Below, in pieces: positions 30 to 32,040 of a stretch of DNA of 44,649 nt (position 1 is its first letter; the number at the start of each line of letters is the position of its first letter). The notes under the pieces are model-generated. The model worked only from the letters and a program-made list of their open reading frames with translations, was not told the origin of the DNA and searched no databases. The DNA is from Vectrevirus T147P9. The stretch is taken from sequence record OZ035774.1. The stretch is one strand, 5' to 3'. A program made the translations under genes and the position numbers.

Positions 30-329
30 GTGAGCGTACACAATAAACATGCAGCTACAGAGGACGAGGTTGGCATTCTGCATGGTGCTATTACCAAAAT
101 CTTCAATAAGAAAGCACAGGCAATACTGGACACTATAGAAGAAGACCCTGATGCAGCATTACATTTAGTGTCTGGTAAGGATATTGGTGCGATGTGTAAG
201 TGGGTTCTTGATAACGGCATTACCGCCACACCTGCTGCACAGCAGGAAGAGTCCAAGTTATCTAAGCGCCTCAAGGCTATCCGAGAGGCATCCAGTGGCA
301 AGATTATTCAGTTTACAAAAGAGGAGTGA
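30..329 (+). CDS. putative terminase small subunit (DNA maturase A-like)
   Basis: 99-aa ORF, GTG start at 30 with GGAGGGA RBS at 18-24; lies between the gp17.5-like holin and the terminase large subunit, i.e. the T7 gene 18 position. Call is by synteny and size only; no motif recognised. Confidence 0.5.
   Translation: MSVHNKHAATEDEVGILHGAITKIFNKKAQAILDTIEEDPDAALHLVSGKDIGAMCKWVLDNGITATPAAQQEESKLSKRLKAIREASSGKIIQFTKEE
121..143 (+). promoter_or_regulatory. phage RNAP promoter-like sequence (variant) inside terminase small gene
   Basis: caatactggacactatagaagaa; matches the window consensus ATTTACTGGACACTATAGAAG except at 2 upstream positions. Confidence 0.4.
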
Positions 330-330
330 T

Positions 331-774
331 ATGCATAGATGGTGTGAATCTCAAGGTTATACCATCTTACCTTCTGGTGTCATCCTTTCAAAGGGTGGCA
401 CCCCTCTCAAACCATTCAAGGCGGGTAGGGGTTATTTAGCAGTTAAAATTAAAAATAAAGAAGGTAAATGGCGTAATGTCTATGTTCATCAATTAGTGGC
501 TTATAAGTATTTACCTAAAACTAATAATGAAGTAAACCACAAAGACGGCGATAAGCACAACAATGATGTTAGCAACTTGGAGTGGGTAACAAGAAGCGAG
601 AATAACTATTTAAAATGCAATGGAAATGATAGGAGTGCCTTAAATAGCTATTTAGCAAGATTAAAAGATTGCTTCTTGCAAGGTAAGGGTGTAGCAGAAA
701 CCGCTAGACTTACTGGTAAAAGTGAACCAAGAGTTTCTTCTCTCTTTAAGGAGTGGCGAAATGGCAAAGGCTAG
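331..774 (+). CDS. HNH homing endonuclease
   Basis: ATG at 331 preceded by GAGGAG RBS (321-326); translation contains VHQLVAYKYLPKTNNEVNHKDGDKHNNDVSNLEWVTRSEN, the His-Asn-His/N-x-x-N pattern of phage HNH endonucleases; paralogous to the ORF at 18554..19033. The track ORF 184..774 is an unsupported N-terminal extension overlapping the previous gene. Confidence 0.75.
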   Translation: MHRWCESQGYTILPSGVILSKGGTPLKPFKAGRGYLAVKIKNKEGKWRNVYVHQLVAYKYLPKTNNEVNHKDGDKHNNDVSNLEWVTRSENNYLKCNGNDRSALNSYLARLKDCFLQGKGVAETARLTGKSEPRVSSLFKEWRNGKG

Positions 775-2659
775 AGAATCACAGGCAGAGGCATTAAAGC
801 GGTGGGAAAACCTTAAAGAACTACAAGACACTTTTAAATATACAGCGGAAGGTTTGCTTCTCTTTGCAGATACAGTTATCCATAACTTGATTGCAGGCAA
901 CCCTCATCTGATTCGTATGCAGGCTGATATCTTGAAGTTCCTATTCTACGGACATAAGTATCGCCTCATCGAAGCGCCTCGTGGTATCGCTAAGACAACA
1001 CTATCAGCAATCTACACGGTATTCCGTATTATCCATGAACCGCATAAGCGTATCATGGTTGTATCCCAAAACGCTAAGCGAGCAGAGGAAATCGCTGGTT
1101 GGGTGGTGAAAATCTTCCGTGGCCTAGACTTCCTTGAGTTTATGCTGCCGGATATCTACGCAGGGGACCGTGCATCCGTTAAAGCATTTGAGATTCATTA
1201 CACCCTACGTGGTAGTGATAAGTCTCCTTCTGTATCCTGTTACTCAATCGAAGCAGGTATGCAGGGTGCTCGTGCTGATATTATTCTAGCGGATGACGTA
1301 GAGTCGATGCAGAATGCTCGTACGGCAGCGGGCCGTGCCTTGCTTGAGGAACTGACTAAGGAGTTTGAATCTATCAACCAGTTTGGGGATATCATTTACC
1401 TTGGTACGCCTCAGAACGTAAACTCTATCTACAACAACCTACCTGCTCGTGGTTACTCTGTTCGTATCTGGACTGCGCGTTATCCTTCAGTAGAGCAAGA
1501 GCAATGTTATGGTGACTTCCTTGCACCTATGATTGTTCAAGATATGAAGGACAACCCAGCACTTCGCTCAGGGTACGGGTTGGATGGTAATAGTGGTGCA
1601 CCTTGTGCCCCTGAAATGTATGATGATGAAGTCCTGATTGAGAAGGAAATCTCTCAGGGTGCGGCTAAGTTCCAGCTTCAGTTCATGCTTAACACTCGCA
1701 TGATGGATGCAGACCGCTACCCACTACGCCTGAACAACCTCATCTTTACTTCGTTCGGTACAGAGGAAGTACCTGTAATGCCTACGTGGAGTAATGACTC
1801 TATTAACATCATTGGCGATGCCCCGAAGTATGGCAATAAACCTACAGACTTCATGTATAGACCTGTGGCTCGCCCGTATGAATGGGGTGCTGTTACACGC
1901 AAGATTATGTATATTGACCCTGCTGGTGGTGGTAAGAATGGGGACGAAACAGGCGTGGCTATAGTCTTTCTGCACGGCACATTCATTTACGTGTATCAGT
2001 GCTTCGGTGTGCCAGGCGGATACCGTGAATCGTCCCTGAATCGCATTGTGCAGGCCGCAAAGCAGGCGGGTGTTAAAGAGGTATTCATTGAGAAGAACTT
2101 TGGTCATGGCGCGTTTGAGGCCGTTATAAAGCCATACTTTGAACGAGAGTGGCCTGTAACTCTGGAAGAGGATTACGCCACAGGACAGAAAGAGTTGCGT
2201 ATCATTGAGACGCTGGAGCCACTCATGGCGGCACACAGGCTCATCTTTAACGCAGAGATGGTGAAATCGGACTTTGATTCGGTACAGAACTATCCGCTTG
2301 AGCTACGCATGTCCTACAGCCTTTTCAATCAAATGTCGAACATCACGATTGAGAAGAACAGCCTCCGGCACGATGACCGCTTAGACGCTCTGTATGGCGC
2401 TATACGGCAATTAACTTCTCAGATAGACTATGACGAGGTTACACGGATTAATCGCCTCAGAGCGCAGGAGATGCGCGATTACATCCATGCTATGAACACA
2501 CCTCACCTCCGCAGGGCGATGCTCTATGGAGATTATGGCACTGAGCGAAGAGTAACCAACACTTCCGTGGCTATGCAGCAAAGAGTGTACGGTCAGAATT
2601 ACAGGAGTAAATCGGCAAATCGAAATACACTTTCTGCAAGGATTTCAAGGACTTATTAA
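761..2659 (+). CDS. terminase large subunit (DNA maturase B)
   Basis: About 630-aa ORF; Walker-A-like segment (LIEAPRGIAKTT), C-terminal nuclease-like segment (YIDPAGGGKNGDETG); size and position match T7 gp19. Start taken at ATG 761 (RBS AAGGAGTGG 748-756); in-frame alternative at 722. Confidence 0.9.
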   Translation: MAKARESQAEALKRWENLKELQDTFKYTAEGLLLFADTVIHNLIAGNPHLIRMQADILKFLFYGHKYRLIEAPRGIAKTTLSAIYTVFRIIHEPHKRIMVVSQNAKRAEEIAGWVVKIFRGLDFLEFMLPDIYAGDRASVKAFEIHYTLRGSDKSPSVSCYSIEAGMQGARADIILADDVESMQNARTAAGRALLEELTKEFESINQFGDIIYLGTPQNVNSIYNNLPARGYSVRIWTARYPSVEQEQCYGDFLAPMIVQDMKDNPALRSGYGLDGNSGAPCAPEMYDDEVLIEKEISQGAAKFQLQFMLNTRMMDADRYPLRLNNLIFTSFGTEEVPVMPTWSNDSINIIGDAPKYGNKPTDFMYRPVARPYEWGAVTRKIMYIDPAGGGKNGDETGVAIVFLHGTFIYVYQCFGVPGGYRESSLNRIVQAAKQAGVKEVFIEKNFGHGAFEAVIKPYFEREWPVTLEEDYATGQKELRIIETLEPLMAAHRLIFNAEMVKSDFDSVQNYPLELRMSYSLFNQMSNITIEKNSLRHDDRLDALYGAIRQLTSQIDYDEVTRINRLRAQEMRDYIHAMNTPHLRRAMLYGDYGTERRVTNTSVAMQQRVYGQNYRSKSANRNTLSARISRTY

Positions 2660-2680
2660 TTACTGGACACTATAGAAGGA
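2658..2680 (+). promoter_or_regulatory. phage RNAP promoter
   Basis: aattactggacactatagaagga immediately 3' of the terminase large stop; SP6-like core CACTATAGAAG. Confidence 0.7.
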
Positions 2681-2813
2681 AGGCCCAGATAATAAGAGAA
2701 ATAACAAGGATAATATAGGTTAACCTAGGTTATATAGGTATGCCTTAGTATGGGTGTACTCCTGTACACCCTATTCCTTACTTCCTTACTATACTTACAT
2801 AATAGGAGAGAGA

Positions 2814-4332: not shown

Positions 4333-4356
4333 ATTTACTGGACACTATAGAAGAGG
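4333..4356 (+). promoter_or_regulatory. phage RNAP promoter (consensus copy)
   Basis: atttactggacactatagaagagg upstream of the first tailspike gene. Confidence 0.75.
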
Positions 4357-4434
4357 TAAGATAGCGCCGTTCTTTTGAGCGGCCTATTACTAGCCAATCT
4401 TCATGGTGAGGGTTGGAAAGTAATAGGAGGTTTA

Positions 4435-6327
4435 ATGGCAAGATTAACTCGCCCTGTTAGTGTATTTAATAGTCTGATGGATATTACTTACCCATGCTCC
4501 ACTGATGGTGGTAAAGCGGAACTACTACAGGTTATACCCGGACGTATGTCTGGTGGTGGTATCCTACTTTGGGACGCCAGTATGCCTCAGTCCAATCATA
4601 ATGGTATTACCATCCTCAGCCCTGAAGCTAAATGGGATGGTACTCTAGAAGGTTTTAAGGCCTATAGGGAAAGTGGAGGGACTGGCAATGGTTGCTGGGT
4701 TCGACCACGCAAAGGTACTGATCTGATGGCATCTTGGGCTGGTGTTGACACAGACGGGGACTGGATTGCGGATGAGCCACTTATGGCGCTGTGTCAGATT
4801 GCACATACACAACGTCGTAATATACGCATAGACTCTGGTGCTGTCATTCGTTGCGGTTTCACAACTCCGATTTTTCAGCAAGACAAGCACAACATTCTAT
4901 CTCAAACATCTTTTGTATTACGTGGTTTAAAGAACTTCTCCATATATGCTGAGCAAGATGCAGAGATAATCACAGACCACCCTGTACATCGTGAGCGTAC
5001 AGTATTCTTCTTGGACGGTTGCGATAAGGTTACAATTTCTGGTCTTAAGTTTAATTCTGATTTCAGCGATTATTCTTTCGAACCTAATAGTCCCTATGAG
5101 CACCATATCAATGAACACTGGTTAGGTGTAGTTGCAGAGGCTTGTGGTACTGTTGAGGTTCGCAGATGTATGTTCAATGCACCTCAGTTTGCTGTAAAGG
5201 CCGACTGTTTTAATAGAACAGACGGTAGGTGGAATGACACAGTTGCAGTAAAAGATTGTTTCTTCCAGTATGCTACAAACTATTGCTTTTTATCACGTAA
5301 GTTACGACATTACATCTTCTCTGATAATGAAGTAAGATTTAATGGACGTAAGTGGCATACATATGGAGAGGCTTGTGCTCCTACTACCTATACTGAGAAT
5401 CAGATTATCACTCGTAACCGTTTCATAGATCAGATTGCTGGTCAAAGCTGTATAACTCCTGGTTCTTATGCTAAGCAAGTACTTATTTCAGATAACTTCT
5501 GTCAACGTAGTAATGGTATCTTTGTTGAGATAGGCAGTGCTAGTAATATTAATATTCTTAACAACGTCTCCAAATCTACAGGTGAACGCATCGTCCACGG
5601 AAGTGATAAGTATGCAGGAACTACACACATCCTTCTAGTATCTGGGGCAGTTGATGATGAACCTGCTGGTGGGCTAAGTAATATCTTGATTCAAGGTAAT
5701 AACTTCCAAGGCGGTGGTTATGCTTTACAAGAGTACAATACAGGCATCCCTATTCGTCGCGGGTTGGATATTCTTAATAACCACCTTGTAGACTGTATTC
5801 CACCAGCCTGTACTAACCAATCCTTTAAGTATATTAGGGTAGAAGGTAACTACATCCAAGCACCGGATGATTACCCAGATATGGCTATTGCAGGTCAACA
5901 CCCTATTATCAAGGATAATGTCCTTATCGGTGTGCGATTGAGGGCTAGAGATTTAGGTTATACTGTTGTAGGGTTAAAAGTAATAGGTAATACTTTTACT
6001 GCAAATAGTGTAGCATCTAAGTTCCCTGCACTGATAGACTACACTGATCTAGAAGATCTTGAAGCTTATGACAACGCAGCAGGTATTCAGGCATCTTATG
6101 ATAGCTTTATAGTAGCACCTGATAACTGTAATAAAATTAGCTTTATGAAAGTCGGTATGGTTGAAGGTTTTACACAGACACCAGCAGTGGTTTATGGTAG
6201 TAAGTTGCAAGAACAGAAGGCAGGTGCGATTATTGGCAATAGTGCACCTGGGTCTGTACATGGTTGTGCTGCATTCGTGAGTACTTCTAGTGGTGGTTGG
6301 GGTTTTATAAACTACGTTCCCGCATAA
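4435..6327 (+). CDS. tailspike protein 1 (putative capsule depolymerase with beta-helix-like repeats)
   Basis: About 630 aa; ATG 4435 after AGGAGG RBS; repetitive segments (ISGLKFNS, ILNNVSKS, IQGNNFQGGG, RVEGNYIQ, IGNTFTANS) suggest a parallel beta-helix; right-end position as in K1-5/SP6 tailspikes. Track start 4375 lacks an RBS. Confidence 0.65.
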   Translation: MARLTRPVSVFNSLMDITYPCSTDGGKAELLQVIPGRMSGGGILLWDASMPQSNHNGITILSPEAKWDGTLEGFKAYRESGGTGNGCWVRPRKGTDLMASWAGVDTDGDWIADEPLMALCQIAHTQRRNIRIDSGAVIRCGFTTPIFQQDKHNILSQTSFVLRGLKNFSIYAEQDAEIITDHPVHRERTVFFLDGCDKVTISGLKFNSDFSDYSFEPNSPYEHHINEHWLGVVAEACGTVEVRRCMFNAPQFAVKADCFNRTDGRWNDTVAVKDCFFQYATNYCFLSRKLRHYIFSDNEVRFNGRKWHTYGEACAPTTYTENQIITRNRFIDQIAGQSCITPGSYAKQVLISDNFCQRSNGIFVEIGSASNINILNNVSKSTGERIVHGSDKYAGTTHILLVSGAVDDEPAGGLSNILIQGNNFQGGGYALQEYNTGIPIRRGLDILNNHLVDCIPPACTNQSFKYIRVEGNYIQAPDDYPDMAIAGQHPIIKDNVLIGVRLRARDLGYTVVGLKVIGNTFTANSVASKFPALIDYTDLEDLEAYDNAAGIQASYDSFIVAPDNCNKISFMKVGMVEGFTQTPAVVYGSKLQEQKAGAIIGNSAPGSVHGCAAFVSTSSGGWGFINYVPA

Positions 6328-6412: not shown

Positions 6413-8125
6413 ATGCTTCAAAGATTAAGTGCTTACTTGGTGAAGTACAAGAGTAAACTAACAGGTACTATTGAGCGCCTGCTATCTGATAAACTATCGG
6501 ATACAATAGATGTTGCGGATTTTGGAGTTAATCCATCTTCTAATGACAACAGGCAAGCCCTTCAAGCTGCATTCAATGCGGTCAGATTTCTAGGCGGAGG
6601 TACTGTATCAGTCACTAAAGCTGGCGAATATAAACTCAGTGGTACTGTTGAGATATTTGCTAATACACACTTCAAGGTTGCTAAAGGTGTAACATTTGTA
6701 CGTGACTACGAAACAGGAGATACGCTATTCAGATTATCACAAGGGCAAGCTAGTAATGTAACAGTCAGTGGAGGTGTCTATGAAGGCAATGGTCACATTA
6801 AAGGAGATACACCTTTTGTAGTATTTGCATCTACTAGTAATAATGATTTGAAGTTTGAAGGCATAACAGTTAACAATGTAGTGGACTACCACGCCATAGA
6901 TTTAGCAGATTGGAACAACGTAGTTATTCGTGATTGTAAGTTCCTAGGGTTTAAGAATACAGGCAGTCGTAACTTCTCAGAGGCTATACAGTTAGACCCA
7001 GGACTTATTACAGTAGGTCGCTATGTGCAGTCTAGTGGTTTACTGGTAGAGAATTGCTATGCTGGCCCAAACCTTGATTCTGGATTTGGCGGGTATGGTG
7101 CTCTAGTAGGAAATCATGCATCAGCTTATGGTGTTCAAGATAACAACATTAGAATCCTAAATTGCACTACAGATGGTGCACTCTTTGCAGGTGTACGTGT
7201 ATTCAACTGGAAAAACTGGATAGTACGTGGTTGCACATTTAGAAACTCTAATGCAAGAGGTGTTCATGTTACACCTGTCTCCTCTCAAACTAAACCGCAA
7301 GGAACCCGACAAGGTAGTGTTGTAGATTGTACTTTTGATGGCGTAAGAACACCAGTGCTAATTGCTGCACCATCTTGGCCTTTTACCGATATTAGTGACA
7401 TTTGGCATGACCATATTGAAATTTCTAATAATACTATGATCCTCACAGAGGATGTATCCTATGGTGTAGATGCAAGGTGGTGTAAGAATTTAATTGTAAA
7501 AGGTAATACAGGCTCTGGTGGCTTAGGGTTAATCGGTTTACGCTTTGGGACAAAATACCACATCGAAGGTAATACTTGGGAAAATGGAAGAGGTAGTGGG
7601 ATTTGGTTAGGTGAGTCTGATGCTACTACATTCATTGGTACTGGCTTATCGGGCGAAGGTATACTTAGTCGTAATATCCTCTCTAAATTAGGGCAATATG
7701 GTATTCATGTAAACTGCAAGGTTGGCGGTCTAGTGATTAAGGCTAATAATATGAAGGAAGTATCTACAGCTGAAGCAGGTAGGCACTTCATTAGCATAGA
7801 CACAGGAGCTAACAACATCCTAGTAGAAGGTAATATTGGAGTAGATGGAGAAAGCCCTAACAAGCCAAGCCTTGGTATTCGTGTTACTTCTTCTTGCTCC
7901 AATATTAAACTAATTGGCAATGATTGCTATGGTACACAGGCGCCTCAGAATAACCAAGGAGTCGGTTCTAGTACGGTGATTGTTTATGGACTAAATGGCA
8001 ATCCTACAACTTTAGGCGTAGGTGCACCTGTAGGCTCTTTAGCAACTGATATCAATGGGTCTGGTGGTGGTACATTGTACGTTAAAGAATCTGGTACATC
8101 TGCTCAAGGTTGGGTTGCAAAGTAG
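6413..8125 (+). CDS. tailspike protein 2 (pectate-lyase-superfamily-like depolymerase)
   Basis: 570 aa; AAGGAGG RBS 6402-6408; N-terminal VADFGVNPSSNDNRQALQAAFNAV...GGGTVSVTKAGEYKLSGTV resembles the pectate-lyase-3 opening of phage depolymerases, followed by Gly/Asn-rich beta-helix-like repeats. Confidence 0.7.
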   Translation: MLQRLSAYLVKYKSKLTGTIERLLSDKLSDTIDVADFGVNPSSNDNRQALQAAFNAVRFLGGGTVSVTKAGEYKLSGTVEIFANTHFKVAKGVTFVRDYETGDTLFRLSQGQASNVTVSGGVYEGNGHIKGDTPFVVFASTSNNDLKFEGITVNNVVDYHAIDLADWNNVVIRDCKFLGFKNTGSRNFSEAIQLDPGLITVGRYVQSSGLLVENCYAGPNLDSGFGGYGALVGNHASAYGVQDNNIRILNCTTDGALFAGVRVFNWKNWIVRGCTFRNSNARGVHVTPVSSQTKPQGTRQGSVVDCTFDGVRTPVLIAAPSWPFTDISDIWHDHIEISNNTMILTEDVSYGVDARWCKNLIVKGNTGSGGLGLIGLRFGTKYHIEGNTWENGRGSGIWLGESDATTFIGTGLSGEGILSRNILSKLGQYGIHVNCKVGGLVIKANNMKEVSTAEAGRHFISIDTGANNILVEGNIGVDGESPNKPSLGIRVTSSCSNIKLIGNDCYGTQAPQNNQGVGSSTVIVYGLNGNPTTLGVGAPVGSLATDINGSGGGTLYVKESGTSAQGWVAK

Positions 8126-8284: not shown

Positions 8285-9115
8285 GCAGGTTAATATCTTA
8301 GTGTACACAAGGGCAGACCTAGGTTTGCTCTTAGTGTATTTACAATGGAGGTCTTATGTATATACCTATTGAAGCAATAGTAGGTTGCCTATGTTTGTTG
8401 ATAGGTTTCGTTATAGGCGTAATAGCAAAGCCTTAGTACTGTACAAGGATTAACCAAAGTCAAAATTTTGATATAGGCGTGTGTCAGCTCTCTCGCCCTC
8501 GCCCTCGCCGGGTTGTCCCCATAGGGTGGCCTGAGGGAATCCGTCTTCGACGGGCAGGGCTGATGTACTCCTTCGCTAGTACAAGGGAGGCGGAGTGAAC
8601 GCCTGGGACGGCCTAGGGAATGGCTTAGTGGTGGACAAGGTGATTACCTTAGTGAAGCCTCTTAGTGCATTCCTTAGGCCATTCAGGGCGTTTATGAGGG
8701 ATTGACAGGGTGGGTGTGGGTGGGCTATCTGTTCGTTTCGCCTAGCGGCTACACTCACTGGCTAGCTTGCGCTACGTTCACTCGCTCACGTGTACCTTAT
8801 GCTATTACTTGATGGATAGCTTAGGTTAACCTTAGTGGACTGCCTTAGTTAAAGCCTTAGTGCTTATCTTAGTATAGCTTAGTATTGTACCTTAGTAAGT
8901 CTTAGTGTCTTCTCTTAGTGATTGCACATGCAAGCATGTAAGATGCCATTAGGTCGCGGTCGGTAGACCGCTAAAGAAAGAGAACAGTAATAAGATGCAG
9001 TAGGAGGAACACCAGAAGCCTAGCCAACCTAGCCTATCCTAGCTCTGTATCTATTGCTTTTCCTTAGTCTCACATGTTAGACAACCTATCTTATTCTTAG
9101 TGATGATAACTTAGT

Positions 9116-9144
9116 GTTGACAAGATAATCTTAGTGTAATACTA
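9116..9144 (+). promoter_or_regulatory. candidate host sigma70 early promoter
   Basis: TTGACA (9116-9121), 17-bp spacer, TACTAT; lies upstream of the early genes in the expected place for host-RNAP early promoters. Sequence match only. Confidence 0.3.
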
Positions 9145-9217
9145 TGCATCACGTAGGCGGTGCTGAGGCACCTAGTAGCCAGCTAGTAAGGCATACGAAG
9201 AGACTAGCGCTTACATT

Positions 9218-9692: not shown

Positions 9693-9761
9693 ATTAACTG
9701 TTGACAGCCACGGCATACAAGGTTACATTAAGCATCAAGACGGCGACGTCTTTAAACACCC

Positions 9762-9986: not shown

Positions 9987-10080
9987 TTGGATGGTAGCTT
10001 CTTAGTCTGGATAGGTTAAACCTAGGGTATTCTTTTGAGTACCCTATAATGTAACCTAACTAGCTAATGAGGATTAAATA

Positions 10081-10410
10081 ATGGAACGCAATGCTAACGC
10101 TTACTACAACCTTCTGGCTGCAACTGTTGAAGCATTCAACGAGCGTATTCAGTTTGATGAGATTCGCGAAGGTGATGATTACTCTGATGCACTACATGAG
10201 GTTGTAGACAGCAATGTTCCAGTTTATTACAGCGAAATCTTTACAGTGATGGCTGCTGATGGTATTGATGTTGATTTTGAGGATGCTGGTTTGATTCCTG
10301 ACACGAAGGATGTAACCAAGATTCTACAAGCTCGCATCTATGAAGCTCTTTATAATGATGTACCAAATGACAGCGATGTAGTTTGGTGTGAAGGCGAAGA
10401 AGAGGAATAA
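10081..10410 (+). CDS. ocr: Ocr-like DNA-mimic anti-restriction protein (T7 gene 0.3 homologue)
   Basis: 109-aa very acidic protein; [45 protein letters not shown] aligns closely with remembered T7 Ocr ([45 protein letters not shown]); early-region position. Confidence 0.85.
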   Translation: [109 protein letters not shown]

Positions 10411-10518
10411 TAAGATGGAAAGGCAATATAACTTCATATTTTCAGACGGTGTGACCTTAAAATGTTCCTTGCGATTTGCGCAGATTCGTGAGGAAGTACT
10501 AGGAACTACATACAAGCT

Positions 10519-10543
10519 ATTTAGCTGACACTATAAGAGAAGG
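10519..10543 (+). promoter_or_regulatory. degenerate phage promoter-like sequence
   Basis: atttagctgacactataagagaagg; upstream half resembles SP6 ATTTAGGTGACACTATAG but the initiation region is TATAAG rather than TATAG. Confidence 0.25.
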
Positions 10544-10604
10544 CTTAACAAGGCGTTGCTACGGTAGCGCCTGATTAAACTTTCACTTACTAGAGGTTAA
10601 AATT

Positions 10605-10730
10605 ATGAAACTATCGCCATCCGCTAAAGGCCTCATTGCAGAACTTAAAGACTCTTTGAGGAATCCAATCATTTGGGCACTTATCTACATACCTTATGGT
10701 ATCTACCTATTTCACCTCATCACTGAGTAA
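10605..10730 (+). CDS. hypothetical small membrane protein
   Basis: 41-aa ORF MKLSPSAKGLIAELKDSLRNPIIWALIYIPYGIYLFHLITE with GAGGT RBS and one hydrophobic helix; not in track. Confidence 0.35.
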   Translation: MKLSPSAKGLIAELKDSLRNPIIWALIYIPYGIYLFHLITE

Positions 10731-10793
10731 ATAGCCTATAGCCTACCTGAGTGGGCTATGTGATATTTACTTACACTATATAAGGTGACTATT

Positions 10794-11780: not shown

Positions 11781-14408
11781 ATGCAAGATTTACACGCTAT
11801 TCAACTTCAACTTGAAGAAGAAATGTTTAACGGCGGTATCCGTCGCTTTGAAGCGGACCAACAACGCCAGATTGCATCCGGTAATGAATCAGACACGGCA
11901 TGGAATCGCCGCTTATTGTCCGAGTTAATCGCGCCAATGGCTGAAGGTATTCAGGCTTATAAGGAAGAGTACGAAGGCAAGCGCGGTCGTGCACCACGTG
12001 CATTGGCTTTCATTAACTGCGTAGAAAATGAAGTGGCAGCGTATATCACGATGAAGATCGTAATGGATATGCTTAACACTGATGTAACCTTGCAAGCTAT
12101 CGCTATGAATGTAGCTGACCGCATCGAAGACCAAGTGCGCTTCAGTAAACTAGAAGGCCATGCAGCTAAATATTTTGAGAAGGTCAAGAAGTCACTTAAG
12201 GCAAGTAAGACTAAATCATATCGCCATGCGCACAATGTAGCGGTCGTGGCTGAGAAGTCAGTAGCTGACCGTGACGCTGATTTCTCTCGCTGGGAAGCGT
12301 GGCCTAAAGATACCTTGCTACAAATTGGTATGACCTTGCTAGAAATACTGGAAAATAGTGTATTCTTCAACGGGCAGCCTGTTTTCATCCGCACCTTGCG
12401 TACTAATGGCGGCAAACACGGTGTTTACTACTTACAGACTAGTGAACACGTTGGCGAGTGGATAACCGCCTTCAAAGAGCACGTAGCGCAACTAAGCCCT
12501 GCATATGCACCTTGCGTTATTCCTCCGCGTCCGTGGGTTTCACCTTTCAACGGTGGGTTTCATACTGAGAAAGTAGCAAGCCGTATCCGCCTTGTTAAAG
12601 GCAACCGTGAGCACGTCCGTAAGTTAACTAAAAAGCAAATGCCAGCGGTCTATAAGGCTGTTAACGCCTTACAAGCTACTAAGTGGCAGGTTAACAAGGA
12701 AGTATTGCAGGTAGTAGAAGATGTTATTCGTCTAGACCTCGGTTATGGTGTACCTTCCTTTAAGCCGCTCATTGACCGCGAGAACAAACCAGCTAACCCT
12801 GTTCCTCTTGAGTTCCAACACCTGCGAGGCCGTGAACTGAAAGAGATGCTTACGCCAGAACAGTGGCAAGCTTTTATAAACTGGAAAGGAGAATGTACCA
12901 AGCTGTATACCGCTGAAACTAAGCGCGGAAGCAAGTCGGCGGCGACCGTTCGCATGGTTGGACAGGCCCGTAAATACAGCCAGTTTGACGCAATTTATTT
13001 TGTGTATGCACTGGACAGCCGTTCACGCGTTTATGCGCAATCTAGCACGCTCTCGCCGCAATCAAACGACTTAGGCAAGGCATTGCTCCGTTTTACCGAA
13101 GGGCAGCGTCTTGATAGCGCTGAGGCGCTTAAGTGGTTTTTGGTGAACGGGGCGAATAATTGGGGTTGGGATAAGAAAACTTTTGACGTGCGCACCGCTA
13201 ACGTGCTGGATGGCGAATTTCAAGACATGTGCCGCGATATTGCAGCCGACCCGCTGACCTTCACTCAATGGGTAAATGCTGATTCCCCTTACGGCTTCCT
13301 TGCATGGTGCTTTGAATATGCGCGTTATCTGGATGCACTGGATGAAGGCACGCAAGACCAATTCATGACGCACCTACCCGTCCATCAAGACGGTAGTTGC
13401 TCTGGTATCCAGCACTATAGCGCGATGTTACGCGATGAAGTAGGTGCGAAAGCAGTAAACCTTAAGCCTTCTGACTCCCCTCAAGATATTTATGGCGCGG
13501 TTGCGCAGGTTGTTATCCAGAAGAATTACGCCTACATGAATGCAGACGATGCAGAGACTTTCACATCTGGAAGCGTCACACTTACAGGTGCAGAACTGCG
13601 TAGCATGGCTAGTGCGTGGGATATGATAGGAATCACTCGCGGATTGACCAAAAAGCCCGTAATGACACTACCTTATGGCAGCACACGTCTAACCTGCCGT
13701 GAATCAGTGATTGATTATATCGTTGATTTGGAAGAAAAAGAGGCCCAACGAGCTATTGCGGAAGGGCGTACCGCCAATCCTGTACATCCTTTTGATAATG
13801 ACCGTAAGGACAGCCTGACACCTAGCGCAGCTTATAACTATATGACAGCTTTAATCTGGCCTTCTATTTCGGAAGTGGTTAAAGCCCCTATAGTGGCAAT
13901 GAAAATGATTCGTCAGCTTGCCCGTTTCGCAGCTAAAAGGAATGAAGGCTTAGAGTATACCTTGCCTACTGGCTTCATCTTGCAACAAAAGATAATGGCG
14001 ACAGATATGCTCCGCGTATCTACTTGCTTGATGGGAGAAATCAAGATGAGTCTACAGATTGAAACGGACGTAGTGGATGAAACGGCTATGATGGGCGCTG
14101 CTGCTCCTAACTTTGTGCATGGTCATGATGCCAGTCACCTTATCTTAACAGTCTGCGACCTTGTTGATAAAGGGATTACATCTATCGCAGTCATTCATGA
14201 TTCTTTCGGTACTCACGCAGGCCGTACAGCCGATCTACGTGATAGTCTAAGGGCAGAAATGGTGAAGATGTATCAAGGCCGTAATGCCCTGCAAAGCCTG
14301 TTAGATGAGCATGAAGAACGCTGGTTAGTAGACACCGGAATCCAAGTGCCAGAGCAAGGAGAATTTGACCTTAACGAAATCTTAGTATCTGACTATTGCT
14401 TCGCATAA
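11781..14408 (+). CDS. T7/SP6-type single-subunit DNA-directed RNA polymerase
   Basis: 875 aa; catalytic motifs [13 protein letters not shown] (motif A) and VIHDSFGTH (motif C) as in T7 RNAP; length close to SP6 RNAP. Confidence 0.95.
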
Positions 14409-14416
14409 TATTAATA

Positions 14417-14447
14417 GGCCATTCCTTCGGGAGTGGCCTTTTCTTTT
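14417..14447 (+). terminator. intrinsic terminator after the RNAP gene
   Basis: ggccattcc-TTCG-ggagtggcc hairpin (9-bp stem with one G-U, UUCG tetraloop) followed by ttttctttt. Confidence 0.65.
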
Positions 14448-14481: not shown

Positions 14482-14497
14482 GTCTCACATGTGAGAC
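14482..14497. repeat. 16-bp perfect palindrome GTCTCACATGTGAGAC (copy 1 of 6)
   Basis: Exact palindrome, 2 bp upstream of the promoter at 14500. Confidence 0.9.
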
Positions 14498-14499
14498 TT

Positions 14500-14523
14500 A
14501 TTTACCGGACACTATAGGATAGC
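14500..14523 (+). promoter_or_regulatory. phage RNAP promoter (CCGG variant)
   Basis: atttaccggacactataggatagc. Confidence 0.6.
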
Positions 14524-14664: not shown

Positions 14665-14680
14665 GTCTCACATGTGAGAC
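14665..14680. repeat. 16-bp perfect palindrome GTCTCACATGTGAGAC (copy 2 of 6)
   Basis: Exact copy, 5 bp upstream of the promoter-like sequence at 14686. Confidence 0.9.
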
Positions 14681-14685: not shown

Positions 14686-14709
14686 ATTTACCGGACAGTA
14701 TAGATAAGA
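14686..14709 (+). promoter_or_regulatory. phage promoter-like sequence (degenerate)
   Basis: atttaccggacagtatagataaga; CAGTATAG instead of CACTATAG; upstream of the gp1.1-like gene. Confidence 0.35.
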
Positions 14710-15087: not shown

Positions 15088-17075
15088 TGGCTATAATCAA
15101 TAACATTCAATGCCCTGCTTGTGCTAAGAACGGGCATGATAAATCCTCTAATCATCTCATGATATTTGATGATGGTGCTGGCTACTGTAATCGTGGACAC
15201 TTTCATGATAATGGTAGACCCTACTACCACAAGCCGGAAGGTGGCATCGAAATCACCGAGCTACCCATCACTGGCAACATCAAATATACACCTTCTCAAT
15301 TCAAAGAAATGGAGAAGGAAGGGAAGATAAGCGACCCTAAGCTACGCGCCATCGCACTTGGTGGTATGCGTATGAAAGACCGTTGGGAGGTTATGAATGA
15401 GCAAGAAAGGGCAGACCAAGAAGCAGAGTGGAAGCTTGATGTTGAATGGTTCCTCACGCTTAAGCGTAAGAACCTTGTATCCCGTCACATTCGAGGTGAC
15501 ATCGCAGCAATGTACGATGTGCGCGTTGGACACGATGAAGAGGGAAGAGTCAACCGTCACTATTATCCACGATATGAAAAGGGTGTGCTTGTTGGAGCAA
15601 AATGCCGGACGTTGCCGAAGGATTTTAAGTTCGGACACCTAGGTAAACTCTTTGGTATGCAAGATCTTTTCGGTATGAACACTTTGTCTCACGTGTTAGA
15701 CAAGGGGAGACGAAAGGATTGCTTGCTTATTGTAGGCGGTGAACTTGATGCACTAGCAGCGCAGCAGATGCTCCTTGATTCTGCCAAGGGTACTAAGTGG
15801 GAGGGTCAGCCATACCATGTATGGTCTGTCAACAAAGGTGAGTCTTGCCTTGAAGAGATAGTGCAGAACCGTGAGCATATCGCCCAATTCAAGAAGATTA
15901 TATGGGGTTTTGATGGAGATGAGGTAGGGCAGAAGCAGAATCAGCAAGCGGCTCGCCTGTTTCCTGGCAAATCCTATATCCTTGAATACCCCTCTGGTTG
16001 CAAAGATGCTAACAAGGCATTGATGGCTGGCAAGGCTAAAGAGTTTGTAGATGCATGGTTTAATGCCAAGTCATCTGATGAAGTCTTTGGTAGCCAGATT
16101 AAATCTATCGCATCTCAAAGGGATAAGCTCAAGGCTGCACGTCCAGAGCAAGGACTATCATGGCCTTGGCCTAAGCTGAACAAGGTAACGCTAGGTATTC
16201 GTAAGAATCAGCTTATCATTGTAGGTGCAGGGTCTGGTGTAGGTAAGACTGAGTTCCTTCGTGAAGTAGTTAAGCACCTCATTGAAGAACACGGTGAATC
16301 TGTAGGCATCATTTCTACAGAAGACCCGATGGTCAAGGTGTCCCGTGCTTTTATCGGCAAGTGGATTGATAAGCGTATTGAGTTACCGCCAACCAACGAC
16401 CCGAAAGAAGATGGATACCGTGAGGTGTTCGACTACACCGAGGAAGAAGCTAACGCCGCCATTGATTATGTAGCTGATACAGGTAAGCTGTTTGTGGCTG
16501 ACCTAGAGGGTGACTATTCGATGGAAAAGGTAGAGCAAACTTGCCTAGAGTTTGAGGCTATGGGCATTTCTAATATCATCATTGATAACTTAACGGGAAT
16601 TAAATTAGATGAGCGTGCTTTTGGTGGGAAGGTTGGTGCACTTGATGAATGCGTCAAGCGGATTGGTACTATCAAAGACCGACACCCGGTTACTATATTC
16701 CTTGTATCACACCTTACACGTCCTCCGGCAAACCGTACCCAACACGAAGAAGGTGGCGAAGTTATCCTTTCTGACTTCCGAGGCTCAGGCGCTATCGGAT
16801 TCTGGGCATCTTACGCCTTGGGGATTGAGCGTAATACAAGAGCTGAAACGCTTGACGAAAGGACTACCACGTACATCTCATGTGTCAAAGACCGCGACCA
16901 AGGTATCTGGACTGGAACCAAGGTCATGCTTAAGGGTGACATTCAAACCGGACGTTTAATGGAACCACAAGCCCGTACTAAGTCATTTGATACAGGTGAA
17001 GCAAGGCAACAAGAAGTGCCGGATTTACCGGACACTATAGAAGAGACAACCTTTGACGATGAACAGGAGTTTTAA
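15087..17075 (+). CDS. DNA primase/helicase (T7 gp4-like)
   Basis: N-terminal Cys4 zinc ribbon (CPACAKNGHDKSSNH...CNRGH), central TOPRIM-like region, Walker A VGAGSGVGKTEF of DnaB-family helicases; acidic C-terminal tail ending EQEF like T7 gp4. Confidence 0.9.
   Translation: MAIINNIQCPACAKNGHDKSSNHLMIFDDGAGYCNRGHFHDNGRPYYHKPEGGIEITELPITGNIKYTPSQFKEMEKEGKISDPKLRAIALGGMRMKDRWEVMNEQERADQEAEWKLDVEWFLTLKRKNLVSRHIRGDIAAMYDVRVGHDEEGRVNRHYYPRYEKGVLVGAKCRTLPKDFKFGHLGKLFGMQDLFGMNTLSHVLDKGRRKDCLLIVGGELDALAAQQMLLDSAKGTKWEGQPYHVWSVNKGESCLEEIVQNREHIAQFKKIIWGFDGDEVGQKQNQQAARLFPGKSYILEYPSGCKDANKALMAGKAKEFVDAWFNAKSSDEVFGSQIKSIASQRDKLKAARPEQGLSWPWPKLNKVTLGIRKNQLIIVGAGSGVGKTEFLREVVKHLIEEHGESVGIISTEDPMVKVSRAFIGKWIDKRIELPPTNDPKEDGYREVFDYTEEEANAAIDYVADTGKLFVADLEGDYSMEKVEQTCLEFEAMGISNIIIDNLTGIKLDERAFGGKVGALDECVKRIGTIKDRHPVTIFLVSHLTRPPANRTQHEEGGEVILSDFRGSGAIGFWASYALGIERNTRAETLDERTTTYISCVKDRDQGIWTGTKVMLKGDIQTGRLMEPQARTKSFDTGEARQQEVPDLPDTIEETTFDDEQEF
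17023..17046 (+). promoter_or_regulatory. phage RNAP promoter inside the 3' end of the helicase gene
   Basis: atttaccggacactatagaagaga. Confidence 0.6.
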
Positions 17076-17308: not shown

Positions 17309-18031
17309 ATGTATAAATTAGTATTGAATGTAGGTGATTATGTTCGTAACATCAATGAAGCCTCACGTCGTTATCGTTGCCGTGGTGTAGTGGCTCGTGT
17401 AAGTGAGAACATGTATCATGTAGAATATGAGGATGGTATTAAGGCTTCTTACCACAAGAAAACAGCACATAAATATCTTGAAAAGATTGTAGAGATAAAC
17501 AATCAATGTAAGTGCATACATGATGAGGTTTGCGATAAGTGTGCACGTCAGGCAGTTAAAGCCTTTACCTTTGCTCAACGTTATGGTTCTATGTATGGCG
17601 CTGGTCACAAGACCCTTGCAGAAGCAGCTTGGAAGACATTACAGTTTGAGCGTTCAAATGGACGACGCACCACAATTAAGAAAGAGCGCCGCAATGTAAT
17701 CACTGGTAAGACTCAAAGTGAAATGATTAAGCAATGTGGCACTGCACTAGGTGTTACGCAGTTTAACACTCGTGCTCTTGGTAAATCCACAGGACAAGCT
17801 ATGGTAAAGATTGGCGAAGCCATGATGCATCCAAATGTACCTGTACGAATCAGGGATGTTGACCATGCAATCACAGAACACGGTACGCAACGACGTGTAA
17901 TTAATAAGCATTTTGCCGACACTATAGAAGGTATTATTCGTAAGCAAGGGTTGAAAGGTCTTCACATCTTGAATGATGAAGAGTTACTGTACCTCCCTAT
18001 TGTTACTGAAGAAACCTACGTGAATATCTAA
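17309..18031 (+). CDS. hypothetical protein
   Basis: 240-aa ORF (ATG 17309; track TTG 17303); Cys cluster CKCIHDEVCDKC; contains an internal promoter-like sequence. Confidence 0.6.
   Translation: MYKLVLNVGDYVRNINEASRRYRCRGVVARVSENMYHVEYEDGIKASYHKKTAHKYLEKIVEINNQCKCIHDEVCDKCARQAVKAFTFAQRYGSMYGAGHKTLAEAAWKTLQFERSNGRRTTIKKERRNVITGKTQSEMIKQCGTALGVTQFNTRALGKSTGQAMVKIGEAMMHPNVPVRIRDVDHAITEHGTQRRVINKHFADTIEGIIRKQGLKGLHILNDEELLYLPIVTEETYVNI
17910..17933 (+). promoter_or_regulatory. phage promoter-like sequence (variant) inside a CDS
   Basis: attttgccgacactatagaaggta. Confidence 0.4.
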
Positions 18032-18553: not shown

Positions 18554-19033
18554 ATGAGTTCGAAACAGATCAAATGTACGAGGATTTTTACTAACTACAT
18601 CCTCTACTCTGATGGTCGAGTTCTTAACGAGAAAACCGGACAATATCTAAGAGGTTACTTAGATAAAGATGGGTATCATATTATGAATATTAAAGGGAAA
18701 CACCTTAAAGTTCATCGATTAGTTGCTATCCATTTCATACCTAACCCTAATAATTTACCTGAAGTTAACCATAAAGATCATGACCGTCTAAACAATAATG
18801 ATTGGAATCTAGAGTGGTGTACTCATCAAGATAACAATAAGCATAGCTTACATTTAGTAATAGCTTCTTGTGCTAAACGCTATGACTTTATATCACCACA
18901 AGGTGTCCATGTAGAAGTCTATAACTTACGTGAGTTTTGTAGGAATAACAACCTACAGCAATCTCATATGGTTAAGGTGGCTAAAGGTAAAGTAAGACAT
19001 CATAAAGGTTGGACTAATTATGCTAGATGTTGA
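18554..19033 (+). CDS. HNH homing endonuclease
   Basis: VHRLVAIHFIPNPNNLPEVNHKDHDRLNNNDWNLEWCTHQDNN is an HNH motif paralogous to the ORF at 331..774; immediately upstream of and overlapping the DNA polymerase start. Confidence 0.75.
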   Translation: MSSKQIKCTRIFTNYILYSDGRVLNEKTGQYLRGYLDKDGYHIMNIKGKHLKVHRLVAIHFIPNPNNLPEVNHKDHDRLNNNDWNLEWCTHQDNNKHSLHLVIASCAKRYDFISPQGVHVEVYNLREFCRNNNLQQSHMVKVAKGKVRHHKGWTNYARC

Positions 19034-21962: not shown

Positions 21963-22223
21963 ATGATTAAATCACAGAAGTATTTCTCAACTAAAGATCG
22001 TAAGGTAGGTTTTGAAATCAAAGTTTGGGAAGACGGACACATTACTATTATTTACGAAGGTAAAGGTTCTAATGGTATGATGCTACGTAGATTCCGTACT
22101 TTCACAAAGAAAGAATGTATGCATATGTCTGAATGCATGTTTCTTTACATCATTGCTGATGATATTAAAGGTATGAAGCTAATTGTATCTCTACCTTTAA
22201 TACCTAAATCTTTGTTAGGTTGA
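21963..22223 (+). CDS. hypothetical protein
   Basis: 86-aa ORF with GGAGAG RBS. Confidence 0.5.
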   Translation: MIKSQKYFSTKDRKVGFEIKVWEDGHITIIYEGKGSNGMMLRRFRTFTKKECMHMSECMFLYIIADDIKGMKLIVSLPLIPKSLLG

Positions 22224-22246
22224 TTTACTGGACACTATAGAAGGAA
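22223..22246 (+). promoter_or_regulatory. phage RNAP promoter (consensus copy)
   Basis: atttactggacactatagaaggaa. Confidence 0.75.
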
Positions 22247-22310: not shown

Positions 22311-22688
22311 ATGTCTATGGTAACTACTCTGGTATTCGTAGCTCAATACTTTCGTGGTTTGGCTAACAAGTTCAAAGCTAAGGCTATCAAAGCTATTGAG
22401 TCTCGCATTGAAGCAGTACATGCAGAGCAGTTTGAAGTTGAAGAACATCGTAGTTCTCAAATGATTGACTGCCACAATCGCTACTATGCATCTCGTGATG
22501 ACCTTAATGCACGCCAAGTCAAAGAGGTTGAAGAGATGCTGGCACGTCACCAGCAAGAGCGCGACAGCCTGAAAGCTGAATTTGAAGAGAACAAGGCATC
22601 CATCGCCCTTGTACATCAAGCCGCATCTGACAGCCTGAAGAAAGAGATTGTTATGCTGGAGATTGAGTTAGACAATCTTACCAAATAA
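22311..22688 (+). CDS. hypothetical protein (predicted coiled coil)
   Basis: 125 aa, AGGAGAG RBS; charged heptad-like C-terminal half. Confidence 0.55.
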   Translation: MSMVTTLVFVAQYFRGLANKFKAKAIKAIESRIEAVHAEQFEVEEHRSSQMIDCHNRYYASRDDLNARQVKEVEEMLARHQQERDSLKAEFEENKASIALVHQAASDSLKKEIVMLEIELDNLTK

Positions 22689-22710
22689 TTACTGGACACT
22701 ATAGAACAAT
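22687..22710 (+). promoter_or_regulatory. phage RNAP promoter
   Basis: aattactggacactatagaacaat overlapping the previous stop. Confidence 0.65.
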
Positions 22711-23832: not shown

Positions 23833-23856
23833 ATTTACTGGACACTATAGAAGAGA
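23833..23856 (+). promoter_or_regulatory. phage RNAP promoter (consensus copy)
   Basis: atttactggacactatagaagaga. Confidence 0.75.
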
Positions 23857-24287: not shown

Positions 24288-24321
24288 GCCCTGTCTGCCT
24301 TAGTGTAGGCAGGGTCTTTTG
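24288..24321 (+). terminator. hairpin plus U-tract terminator
   Basis: ccctgtctg-ccttagtg-taggcaggg followed by tcttttg, directly after the 23905..24282 stop. Confidence 0.55.
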
Positions 24322-25988: not shown

Positions 25989-26988
25989 GCTTCGCAGCTT
26001 GTACAAAGACTCCGAGGTACTTGATGCAATCGAGCAAGCTACCGACGAGAAAGGTAATGTTAATTACAATGAGATGGCACGTGTATTATCGTGTCACCCT
26101 GTGGGTAAGAAGATTACCCGCCAGTTGGCTCGATACTGGCATGGTCAATTCAAGAAGACCAAGAAGAATGGTGATTATTACCAGACCCTTCTGCAAGAAG
26201 ATAAGCGTATCAAAGAAGAGCGTAAGCTCAGGACTCCTGACCGCTACGAGGATTTGGCTATTGTACCATTGCCTGACTCGCCTCATCGAAGTGTACTGGT
26301 AATCCCTGATACTCATGCACCTTATGAGCATCCAGATACCTTAGAGTTCCTTGCAGCAGTCGCGGCACGTTACCGTCCAGATACAGTGGTTCACTTAGGA
26401 GATGAGGCAGATAAACACGCCCTCTCCTTCCATGACTCTGACCCGAATCTGGATAGTGCTGGCATGGAGCTAGAGAAGGCTCGTGTCTTCATGCACAAGT
26501 TGCACAAGATGTTCCCTGTGATGCGCCTGTGTCATTCTAATCACGGCTCTATGCACTTCCGTAAGGCAAGCGCCAAGGGTATTCCAGTGCAATATCTTCG
26601 CACCTACCGTGAAGTCTTCTTCCCAAATGGAGGTGGCGACCAGTGGGATTGGCAGCATACACATGTTCTTGAGTTGCCGAATGGCGAACAAGTGGCATTC
26701 AAGCATCAACCTGCTGGCTCTGTCCTAGCAGATGCAGCGCATGAGCGTATGAACCTAGTGTGTGGTCACTTGCACGGTAAGATGTCTGTGGAGTACGCAC
26801 GTAATACACATGAACAGTATTGGGCTGTGCAAGGTGGCTGCTTAATTGATGAGTCATCCCGTGCATTTGCCTATGGTCGTGAGTCTAAATACAAGCCAGC
26901 ATTAGGTTGTGTGGTCATTCTGGAGGGTGTGCCTCACATTGTCCCGATGCAAACCAATAGCGACAACCGTTGGATTGGCAAGATTTAG
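25981..26988 (+). CDS. calcineurin-like metallophosphoesterase
   Basis: Phosphoesterase signature series VIPDTHAP, LGDEAD, HSNHG, GHLHG; start proposed at TTG 25981 with AAGGAGG RBS; track start 25849 overlaps the previous gene; first ATG at 26074. Confidence 0.65.
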   Translation: MGKLRSLYKDSEVLDAIEQATDEKGNVNYNEMARVLSCHPVGKKITRQLARYWHGQFKKTKKNGDYYQTLLQEDKRIKEERKLRTPDRYEDLAIVPLPDSPHRSVLVIPDTHAPYEHPDTLEFLAAVAARYRPDTVVHLGDEADKHALSFHDSDPNLDSAGMELEKARVFMHKLHKMFPVMRLCHSNHGSMHFRKASAKGIPVQYLRTYREVFFPNGGGDQWDWQHTHVLELPNGEQVAFKHQPAGSVLADAAHERMNLVCGHLHGKMSVEYARNTHEQYWAVQGGCLIDESSRAFAYGRESKYKPALGCVVILEGVPHIVPMQTNSDNRWIGKI

Positions 26989-27006
26989 TTGACACTATAG
27001 AACAAA
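26983..27006 (+). promoter_or_regulatory. phage RNAP promoter (SP6-like variant)
   Basis: atttagttgacactatagaacaaa; closest of all copies to SP6 ATTTAGGTGACACTATAGAAG. Confidence 0.55.
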
Positions 27007-29319: not shown

Positions 29320-29328
29320 GGAGATAAC

Positions 29329-29538: not shown

Positions 29539-29539
29539 T

Positions 29540-31090: not shown

Positions 31091-32010
31091 TGTCTTTCTC
31101 ATTTACTGAACCGTCAACCACTCACCCTACTGCTGAAGAGGGTCCGGTAGAAACCAAGGAGGTAACAACTGATGCTGCTACTACTGATGCTCCTGCTGAC
31201 GCTGGCACTGCTGTACAAGATGACAATGCTGGTGCACAACCTACTGAAGACACCGGAGGAGAAGCTTCTGGACAGCCTTCAGAAGAAGGAGACAATGGCG
31301 GAGAGAATGGTGAATCTAAGCCAGATGATACCGCGACCGACACTGAGGAAGTGCAATACTTCTTCGGAGAGCATGAAGTAACAGTAGACATCCCACAGGA
31401 TGTAACTGATAGTCTTAAAGAGAAAGGCATTGATGCTAAGCAGGTTGCCAAGGAACTCTATGCCAAAGATGGCAAGTTTGAACTGTCCGATGCAACCAAG
31501 CAGAAGCTATATGATGCCTTTGGCAAGTTTGCAGTAGATGCCTACCTGTCTGGCCTTAAGGCACAGAATGAAGCTTTCTTCCTGAAGGAAGCTAACGCAG
31601 CTAAGGAACTGGAAGCAGCTAACACTCAGCGCTTCTCTGATGTTTCTAAGGAAGTTGGTGGCGAAGAAGGCTGGTCCCGTCTTGAGGCATGGGCGCTTGA
31701 AGCGCTGTCCGATGATGAACTAACGGCATTCAATGCGGTGATGGAATCTGGCAACCAGTACCTCCAGCAGTATGCTGTGCGTGAACTGGAGAGCCGCCGT
31801 AAGGCTGCACAAGGTGATGACAAGCCAAACCTGATTGAACCCTCTGCACCTGCTGCTGCATCTGAAGATAACGGCCCCCTCTCGCGGGAGCAATACCTGC
31901 GTGAGATGATGACCCTTAGCTCTCGCTTCGGCACAGACAAGAAAGCTGCTGCTGAGTATCAGGCTAAACTGGATGCTCGCCGCCGCGCTGGTATGGCTCG
32001 CGGATTATAA
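31090..32010 (+). CDS. capsid assembly scaffolding protein
   Basis: 306 aa, acidic and Ala/Glu-rich, between portal and major capsid genes (T7 gene 9 position). Confidence 0.8.
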   Translation: MSFSFTEPSTTHPTAEEGPVETKEVTTDAATTDAPADAGTAVQDDNAGAQPTEDTGGEASGQPSEEGDNGGENGESKPDDTATDTEEVQYFFGEHEVTVDIPQDVTDSLKEKGIDAKQVAKELYAKDGKFELSDATKQKLYDAFGKFAVDAYLSGLKAQNEAFFLKEANAAKELEAANTQRFSDVSKEVGGEEGWSRLEAWALEALSDDELTAFNAVMESGNQYLQQYAVRELESRRKAAQGDDKPNLIEPSAPAAASEDNGPLSREQYLREMMTLSSRFGTDKKAAAEYQAKLDARRRAGMARGL

Positions 32011-32016
32011 TCAGTA

Positions 32017-32040
32017 TTTACTGGACACTATAGAAGGGAG
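32017..32040 (+). promoter_or_regulatory. phage RNAP promoter (consensus copy) driving the capsid gene
   Basis: atttactggacactatagaaggga, about 47 bp upstream of the capsid ATG. Confidence 0.8.

Follow-up and report, generated by a model that had tools for sequence, protein, structure and literature searches.

In the genome papers of phages K1-5 and K1E, by Scholl et al. in 2004 and by Stummeyer et al. in 2006, the promoters of these phages are reportedly listed. Promoter features were looked for in the GenBank records of K1-5, K1E and SP6, and none were found to be annotated. Here, the corresponding system of Vectrevirus T147P9 was analysed in a window of 44,649 nucleotides (nt), which is the whole stretch of DNA under study (sequence record OZ035774.1; one strand, 5' to 3'). 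The window contains a family of repeated 21-base motifs and a gene of a single-subunit RNA polymerase (RNAP). The motif family is very probably the promoter set read by this phage-encoded RNAP of Vectrevirus, in which three bases differ from the promoters of SP6 in a manner that matches the serine at residue 747 of the polymerase (Ser747), where SP6 has an arginine.

Expression in mammalian cells has been driven by the K1E and K1.5 polymerases from their own promoters (PMC6412113), large-scale mutagenesis of the 21-base-pair (bp) K1.5 promoter has been carried out in E. coli (PMC12231593), and both polymerase-promoter pairs function in E. coli and in mammalian cells (PMC12231593, PMC6412113). 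In a genome-mining study of 2025, K1E and SP6 formed separate clusters of residue/base specificity (PMC11880802). A further polymerase, RNAP No. 2049, was determined to transcribe from TATTTACTGGACACTATAG in vitro in a paper of 2026 (PMC13029058). Because of these publications and the sequence identity with the K1-5, K1E and SP6 genomes, the promoter set and the K1-5/K1E polymerase-promoter pair, which is in use in synthetic biology, are already known and are not presented as new.

The RNAP gene of T147P9 is 99.5% identical at the nucleotide level to that of OZ035788.1 (Vectrevirus T147P1) and about 92% identical to that of K1-5. In the first 25 kilobases of the stretch, 90% of the length aligned with OZ035788.1 at 96% identity. 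The gene map is complete and collinear with those of K1E and K1-5, as determined by tblastn with the K1E and K1-5 proteins as queries. Judged by these similarities, the stretch is a genome of Vectrevirus, the K1-5/K1E-like genus of the subfamily Molineuxvirinae.

K1-5 and K1E have the same promoter consensus, ATTTAC(T/C)GGACACTATAGAAG, the same number of sites and the same gene junctions as T147P9. They also share its three intragenic sites and the variants starting at 10519, 14686, 17910 and 26983; single-base differences were found at a few sites only, e.g. a T at -7 in the helicase-gene promoter of K1-5. T147P9 differs from K1-5 in an HNH insert 3' of the terS promoter and in its tail spikes, the promoter system being unaffected. 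SP6 (genus Zindervirus) shares ATTTA at -17 to -13, GACACTATA at -9 to -1 and GAAG at +1 to +4 with T147P9, and has promoters at 12 of the 13 T147P9 positions, including the helicase-gene and gp10 sites. However, SP6 has no terS promoter and has an extra site in gene 35. Its consensus is ATTTAGGTGACACTATAGAAG, and its bases -12 to -10 read GGT, GGG or GGA, always with G at -11, whereas those of T147P9 read CTG or CCG, always with T or C at -11.

The T7 promoter of about 23 bp has the CACTATAG core (-7 to +1) in common with T147P9 but differs at -17 to -8 (TAATACGACT in T7). In both phages, the RNAP gene is followed by a terminator and two promoters, and a terminator stands after the capsid gene. 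The promoter phi4c is annotated inside gene 4 in the T7 record and is thus intragenic like some of the T147P9 copies. The architecture of the specificity loop is common to both polymerases (structure 1CEZ), although their identity is 35% and T7 N748, R756 and Q758 correspond to S, K and S in T147P9.

Promoter family of T147P9

The exact sequence ATTTACTGGACACTATAGAAG was found at 4333, 22223, 23833 and 32016, and its CCGG form at 17023. With up to three mismatches, ATTTACTGGACACTATAGAAG gave 10 matches, every one on the plus strand, and none in 100 dinucleotide-preserving shuffles. The search with CACTATAGAAG at up to one mismatch resulted in 11 matches versus 1.16 expected. A scan for the core added 14703, 17927 and 10536 to the motif matches, the sites being named by their +1 base, which corresponds to the G of GAAG. 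In total, 13 good copies and one doubtful copy were obtained, all on the plus strand. They are listed below, with the sequence up to -1 followed by the four bases from +1.

121..141, plus strand: promoter, CAATACTGGACACTATA then GAAG, +1 at 138; inside terS (30-329), 5' of the HNH open reading frame (ORF) and terL
2658..2678, plus strand: promoter, AATTACTGGACACTATA then GAAG, +1 at 2675; overlaps the terL stop codon, 5' of gp41; syntenic with K1-5 37610 and SP6 37790
4333..4353, plus strand: promoter, exact consensus, +1 at 4350; 5' of tail-spike gene 1; syntenic with K1-5 39282 and SP6 39927
10519..10539, plus strand: variant promoter with an A start, ATTTAGCTGACACTATA then AGAG, +1 at 10536; early region, 5' of gp5/gp6 and the RNAP gene; function predicted
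10764..10784, plus strand: doubtful promoter-like site, TATTTACTTACACTATA then TAAG, +1 (a T) at 10781; 13 nt 5' of gp6, overlapping a sigma-70-like match
14500..14520, plus strand: promoter, ATTTACCGGACACTATA then GGAT, +1 at 14517; first of two after the RNAP gene; syntenic with K1-5 6037 and SP6 6135
14686..14706, plus strand: variant promoter with G at -5, ATTTACCGGACAGTATA then GATA, +1 at 14703; 31 nt 5' of gp8
17023..17043, plus strand: promoter, ATTTACCGGACACTATA then GAAG, +1 at 17040; in the last 35 nt of the primase/helicase gene (15087-17075), 5' of gp9.5; SP6 counterpart at 8428, inside gene 9
17910..17930, plus strand: variant promoter, ATTTTGCCGACACTATA then GAAG, +1 at 17927; inside gp10 (17309-18031), 5' of gp10.5; SP6 counterpart at 9129, inside gene 10
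22223..22243, plus strand: promoter, exact consensus, +1 at 22240; 5' of gp15
22687..22707, plus strand: promoter, AATTACTGGACACTATA then GAAC, +1 at 22704; 5' of gp16
23833..23853, plus strand: promoter, exact consensus, +1 at 23850; 5' of gp18
26983..27003, plus strand: variant promoter, ATTTAGTTGACACTATA then GAAC, +1 at 27000; overlaps the end of gp22, 5' of gp23
32016..32036, plus strand: promoter, exact consensus, +1 at 32033; 54 nt 5' of the major capsid gene

Over the 13 good sites, ATTTA at -17 to -13 is nearly fixed. The base at -12 is C in 10 sites and G in three, that at -11 is T in eight and C in five and never G, and that at -10 is G in 10, T in two and C in one; positions -12 and -10 carry about 1 bit of information each. 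The sequence at -9 to -1 is GACACTATA in 12 of the 13 sites, the exception being the G at -5 of 14703, and +1 is G in 12. The variants with G at -12 are those starting at 26983 (GTT at -12 to -10), 10519 (GCT) and 17910 (GCC), and none of them has G at -11. The site at 26983 is identical in K1-5 and K1E and its SP6 counterpart is ATTTAAGTG at 17445; it was rejected as an SP6 promoter, as T is retained at -11. The site 10781 is probably not a phage-polymerase promoter, considering its T at +1, the distance of 13 nt from the start codon and the overlap with the sigma-70-like match.

An earlier note on this DNA, made from the sequence alone, had counted five exact copies and about eight variants, which agrees with the 13 good sites of the core scan. 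Four of the five exact copies were located correctly, and the fifth, given at 32017, starts at 32016. As a further correction, CACTATAGAAG occurs exactly in eight sites only. The bases differing from SP6 had been placed at about -12 to -7, two bases off: the differing positions are -12, -11 and -10 (CTG/CCG versus GGT in SP6). The copy at 26983 was likewise mistaken for the only SP6-like one, since 10519 and 17910 also have G at -12. The placement of the copies 121, 17023 and 17910 inside ORFs, namely in terS, the primase/helicase gene and gp10, proved right.

Ten of the sites stand between genes or share no more than a stop codon with one, and three are inside genes (138, 17040 and 17927). 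The leaders from the site to the next gene are 25-258 nt long. The intragenic copies were not regarded as unusual, given that SP6 has two of them as well and that T7 has phi4c inside gene 4. The promoter at 121..141 is identical in K1-5 (35505) and K1E (37199) and there is none at the SP6 position, where SP6 reads GCAATCCTAGCTGCGGTAGAAGAA (AILAAVEE) versus GCAATACTGGACACTATAGAAGAA (AILDTIEE) in T147P9, the next residue being D in both. By this comparison, the terS-internal promoter is specific to Vectrevirus.

The three copies inside coding sequence could also be taken to mean that the repeats are chance or coding-driven, or represent some other signal of packaging, replication or recombination, and the two copies after the RNAP gene have palindromes and an AT/purine-rich stretch next to them, with a possible role in replication. 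Such an explanation is highly improbable. No matches were obtained in the shuffles, every copy lies on the coding strand, usually 25-260 nt 5' of a start codon, and the core equals that of the SP6 promoter as defined by biochemistry. The K1.5, K1E and No. 2049 polymerases transcribe from the same sequence (PMC12231593, PMC6412113, PMC13029058). The terS copy needed amino-acid changes relative to SP6, therefore the protein sequence does not explain that copy. Four features of T7-supergroup RNAP promoters were found: a core motif, many co-oriented copies, a cognate RNAP gene and a position 5' of middle and late genes. Initiation by the phage RNAP at +1 of the motif is predicted from the near-identical systems of No. 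2049, K1.5 and K1E, for which it has been published. As the motifs lie on one strand, 5' of genes and in synteny with K1-5, K1E and SP6, and as the cognate RNAP is encoded by the same phage, they are very probably the promoters of its own RNAP.

The specificity loop and base -11

The polymerase gene and its specificity loop are located as follows.

11781..14408, plus strand: single-subunit RNAP gene, 875 amino acids; amino-acid identity 100% to OZ035788.1, 99% to K1-5 gp7, 86% to SP6 and, over the full length, 35% to T7
13992..14078, plus strand: codons of the specificity loop, residues 738-766; R745, S747, K755 and S757 align with T7 R746, N748, R756 and Q758

The loop aligns to that of T7 without gaps, and the Ser747 codon is at 14019-14021. 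The loop of T147P9 is identical to those of K1-5 and K1E. In comparison with SP6, five positions differ, and Ser747 versus Arg is the only non-conservative replacement: at the equivalents of T7 R746, N748, R756 and Q758, T147P9 has R, S, K and S and SP6 has R, R, K and S. The loop difference from SP6 which the earlier note had deduced from the promoters was thus confirmed by the alignment to SP6, K1-5 and K1E that it had proposed, and the identity with the SP6 loop that would have spoken against it was not found. The AT-rich recognition loops, KRGRAPRAL in T147P9 and KKGRAPRAL in SP6, are nearly identical, in line with the ATTTA common to both phages.

T7 N748 contacts -11 and -10 (structure 1CEZ; restated in PMC11880802). 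Since Ser747 aligns with N748, it can be inferred from the T7 structure that the altered bases would be read by this altered residue. Ser747 in place of the SP6 Arg would accordingly match CTG/CCG in place of GGT at -12 to -10.

To compare loops and promoters more widely, 22 further loci encoding RNAP relatives were taken from IMG/VR, and both elements were read together with those of the reference genomes. The results were grouped by the residue at the T7-N748 equivalent.

Ser-type: 15 loci, 103 promoters; base -11 is T or C in 101 and G in 2
Arg-type (SP6-like): 7 loci, 48 promoters; base -11 is G in 48 of 48

In these 22 genomes and contigs, the loop residue and base -11 vary together. At -12 and -10, the Ser-type and Arg-type groups are both less uniform, and the most consistent difference from SP6 is at -11, with T or C in T147P9 and G in SP6. 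T147P9 has the features of the Vectrevirus promoter class, i.e. a pyrimidine at -11, synteny with K1-5 and K1E, and Ser at the T7-N748 equivalent. Those of the SP6 (Zindervirus) class were not found, as none of the 13 sites has G at -11 and residue 747 is Ser, not Arg. No promoters were detected with the SP6-type pattern scan in Klebsiella phage pKV-BS375-3.1 or in the locus L028.

Loop and promoter are altered together in three further lineages. The locus L022 (IMGVR_UViG_3300045988_000861; loop near 10001-10825) encodes an SP6-like RNAP with Lys replaced by Phe at the T7-R756 equivalent; its promoters read ATTTGTGTTGCACTATAG and are altered at about -9 to -7, so that L022 may be a separate natural specificity class. 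The loop of Proteus phage PM93 has R, R, R and S at the four positions, and its promoters read AATTAGAGACCACTATAG, with GAGAC at -12 to -8. Erwinia phage S2 has Ser at the N748 equivalent and promoters A(A/T)TAACCACCCAGTATAG, with CCACC at -12 to -8.

Several observations weigh against a strict pairing of Ser747 with the changed bases. Essentially, the Ser/Arg covariation goes back to a single divergence of two clades, with a few outgroups in addition, so that the independent events are few. PM93 pairs Arg with A at -11, therefore reading of G at -11 by Arg is no simple code. The rule linking Ser or Arg with base -11 is suggestive and not a code. The assignment of residues to bases depends on a 35%-identity alignment to T7: the nearest solved structure to the T147P9 RNAP is T7 RNA polymerase (1CEZ, 1ARO; E ~1e-111), and no SP6-type polymerase structure was found in the solved-structure search with the T147P9 RNAP. 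Moreover, K1E- and SP6-type enzymes follow the T7-derived recognition rules poorly (PMC11880802). RNAP No. 2049, which is 98% identical to the T147P9 RNAP and has the same Ser at the N748 equivalent, gave a signal of 3.5% on the SP6 promoter versus about 2% on its own consensus (PMC13029058). Finally, the locus L017 (IMGVR_UViG_3300029310_000051), with a Ser-type loop, carries the exact SP6 consensus ATTTAGGTGACACTATAGAAG at 909-929, at the position of the tail-spike promoter; the upstream flank is 87% identical to K1-5, and the backbone is that of Vectrevirus.

The signals of No. 2049 and the SP6 consensus promoter of L017 indicate that the Vectrevirus enzyme probably tolerates SP6-type promoters and that the change of specificity is probably partial; the changed loop does not prove strict discrimination. 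The same two observations are also accounted for if the promoters are real but Ser747 relaxes the specificity, GGT and CTG/CCG both being accepted. The consensus would then reflect drift or mild optimisation rather than an orthogonal specificity, and any discrimination would be one-way, with SP6 RNAP rejecting CTG but the T147P9 RNAP accepting GGT. The single CGG promoter of the locus L010 agrees with such relaxation, as does the choice of bases in T147P9 itself, where C or G at -12 and G, T or C at -10 are found. However, T or C at -11 in 101 of 103 Ser-type promoters suggests selection rather than free drift. RNAP No. 2049 has Ser replaced by Gly at the Q758 equivalent and is therefore an inexact proxy for the T147P9 enzyme; in addition, its signals were low, and the promoters compared were followed by different initially transcribed sequences. 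Relaxed specificity is on balance a serious possibility, rated at somewhat under even chances. The more definite proposal, that the Ser747 RNAP is a broadened-specificity enzyme reading its own and SP6-type promoters while the SP6-type Arg enzymes insist on G at -11, is rather unlikely.

Genome layout and neighbouring elements

The first letters of the window belong to the end of the holin gene gp38, and terS (30-329) follows directly. The left and right ends of K1-5 both map to about 8493-8727, which is therefore the single copy of the direct terminal repeat of about 235 bp. By these coordinates, the stretch is a circularly permuted assembly, so the physical order of the promoters runs from 10536 to 32033 and continues with 138, 2675 and 4350. 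Candidate host sigma-70 early promoters are at 9117-9145 and 9701-9729.

Strong terminator-like hairpins were found at three positions.

14416..14439, plus strand: terminator-like hairpin, 10 pairs (6 GC), then TTTCTTTT; directly 3' of the RNAP gene
24288..24315, plus strand: terminator-like hairpin, 11 pairs; 3' of gp18
33300..33326, plus strand: terminator-like hairpin, 11 pairs, then TCTTTTTGTT; directly 3' of the major capsid gene, at the position of T7 T-phi

Hairpins with T runs after the polymerase, gp18 and capsid genes are the layout expected of a T7-supergroup phage. In the transcription programme inferred from this layout, the host polymerase would transcribe the early genes, including the RNAP gene (11781-14408), and would largely stop at the hairpin at 14416. 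The phage RNAP would then start at the G of GAAG behind ...CACTATA at about 13 sites, all rightward, and these sites would drive the genes of DNA metabolism, the virion, packaging, lysis and the tail spikes.

Two of the deviant promoters are conserved. The A-start variant at 10536 (GACACTATA then AGAG) is kept in K1-5 (2031), K1E, the SP6 group (AATTATGTG... then AGAG; SP6 2121), L022 (6956) and Erwinia S2 (locus L008, 1645), and each copy has the bases of its own lineage at -12 to -8. This promoter lies 5' of the RNAP gene and could let the phage RNAP transcribe its own gene. The variant at 14703, with C replaced by G at -5 and a GATA start, was found in every Vectrevirus locus at this site, in Proteus PM93 (locus L006, 6611) and also in L027 at 6818. 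The G at -5 is common to Vectrevirus and Acadevirus, whose bases at -12 to -8 are those of the respective genus, and the conserved deviant promoter is presumably weak or regulated.

A perfect 16-nt palindrome, GTCTCACATGTGAGAC, is present at 14482-14497 and 14665-14680, 2-5 nt 5' of both promoters that follow the RNAP gene. The two copies of GTCTCACATGTGAGAC flank a purine/AT-rich stretch of about 140 nt. Since this position equals that of the T7 primary replication origin at phi1.1A/phi1.1B, the palindrome region may be an origin or a regulatory site.

Downstream of the terS-internal promoter, a 147-residue HNH endonuclease ORF was found at 331-774 on the plus strand (Pfam HNH_3, E = 2.6e-11). 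It starts 193 nt 3' of that promoter and occupies a 432-nt insert between terS and terL; K1-5 is without the insert, and in K1E a homing endonuclease is located within terL instead. A second HNH endonuclease ORF, at 18554-19033 on the plus strand (HNH_3, E = 1.3e-5), stands just 5' of the DNA polymerase gene and has weak matches to an I-HmuI NUMOD-like sequence and to the K1E gp40.5 homing endonuclease. The products of the tail-spike genes at 4375-6327 and 6413-8125 (plus strand) are beta-helix proteins without relationship to the K5 lyase and the K1 endosialidase of K1-5; the second one is similar to the gp47 N-terminus in its first ~100 residues only (34% identity). The difference of the tail spikes from those of K1-5 suggests a different capsule or O-antigen host range.

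Meaning for Vectrevirus and its relatives

The promoter sites define the transcription units of T147P9, and the K1-5-type promoter/RNAP pair is conserved across Vectrevirus; beyond annotation, this is of little importance. The covariation between loop residue and promoter base (T or C at -11 with Ser, G at -11 with Arg, and the separate pairs of L022, PM93 and Erwinia S2) could guide the design of orthogonal pairs, an idea which has already been published. If the Ser747 enzyme does read SP6-type promoters as well as its own, the one-way compatibility would let Vectrevirus acquire SP6-like cassettes, e.g. tail-spike modules, together with their promoters, and L017 would be an example of such an acquisition.

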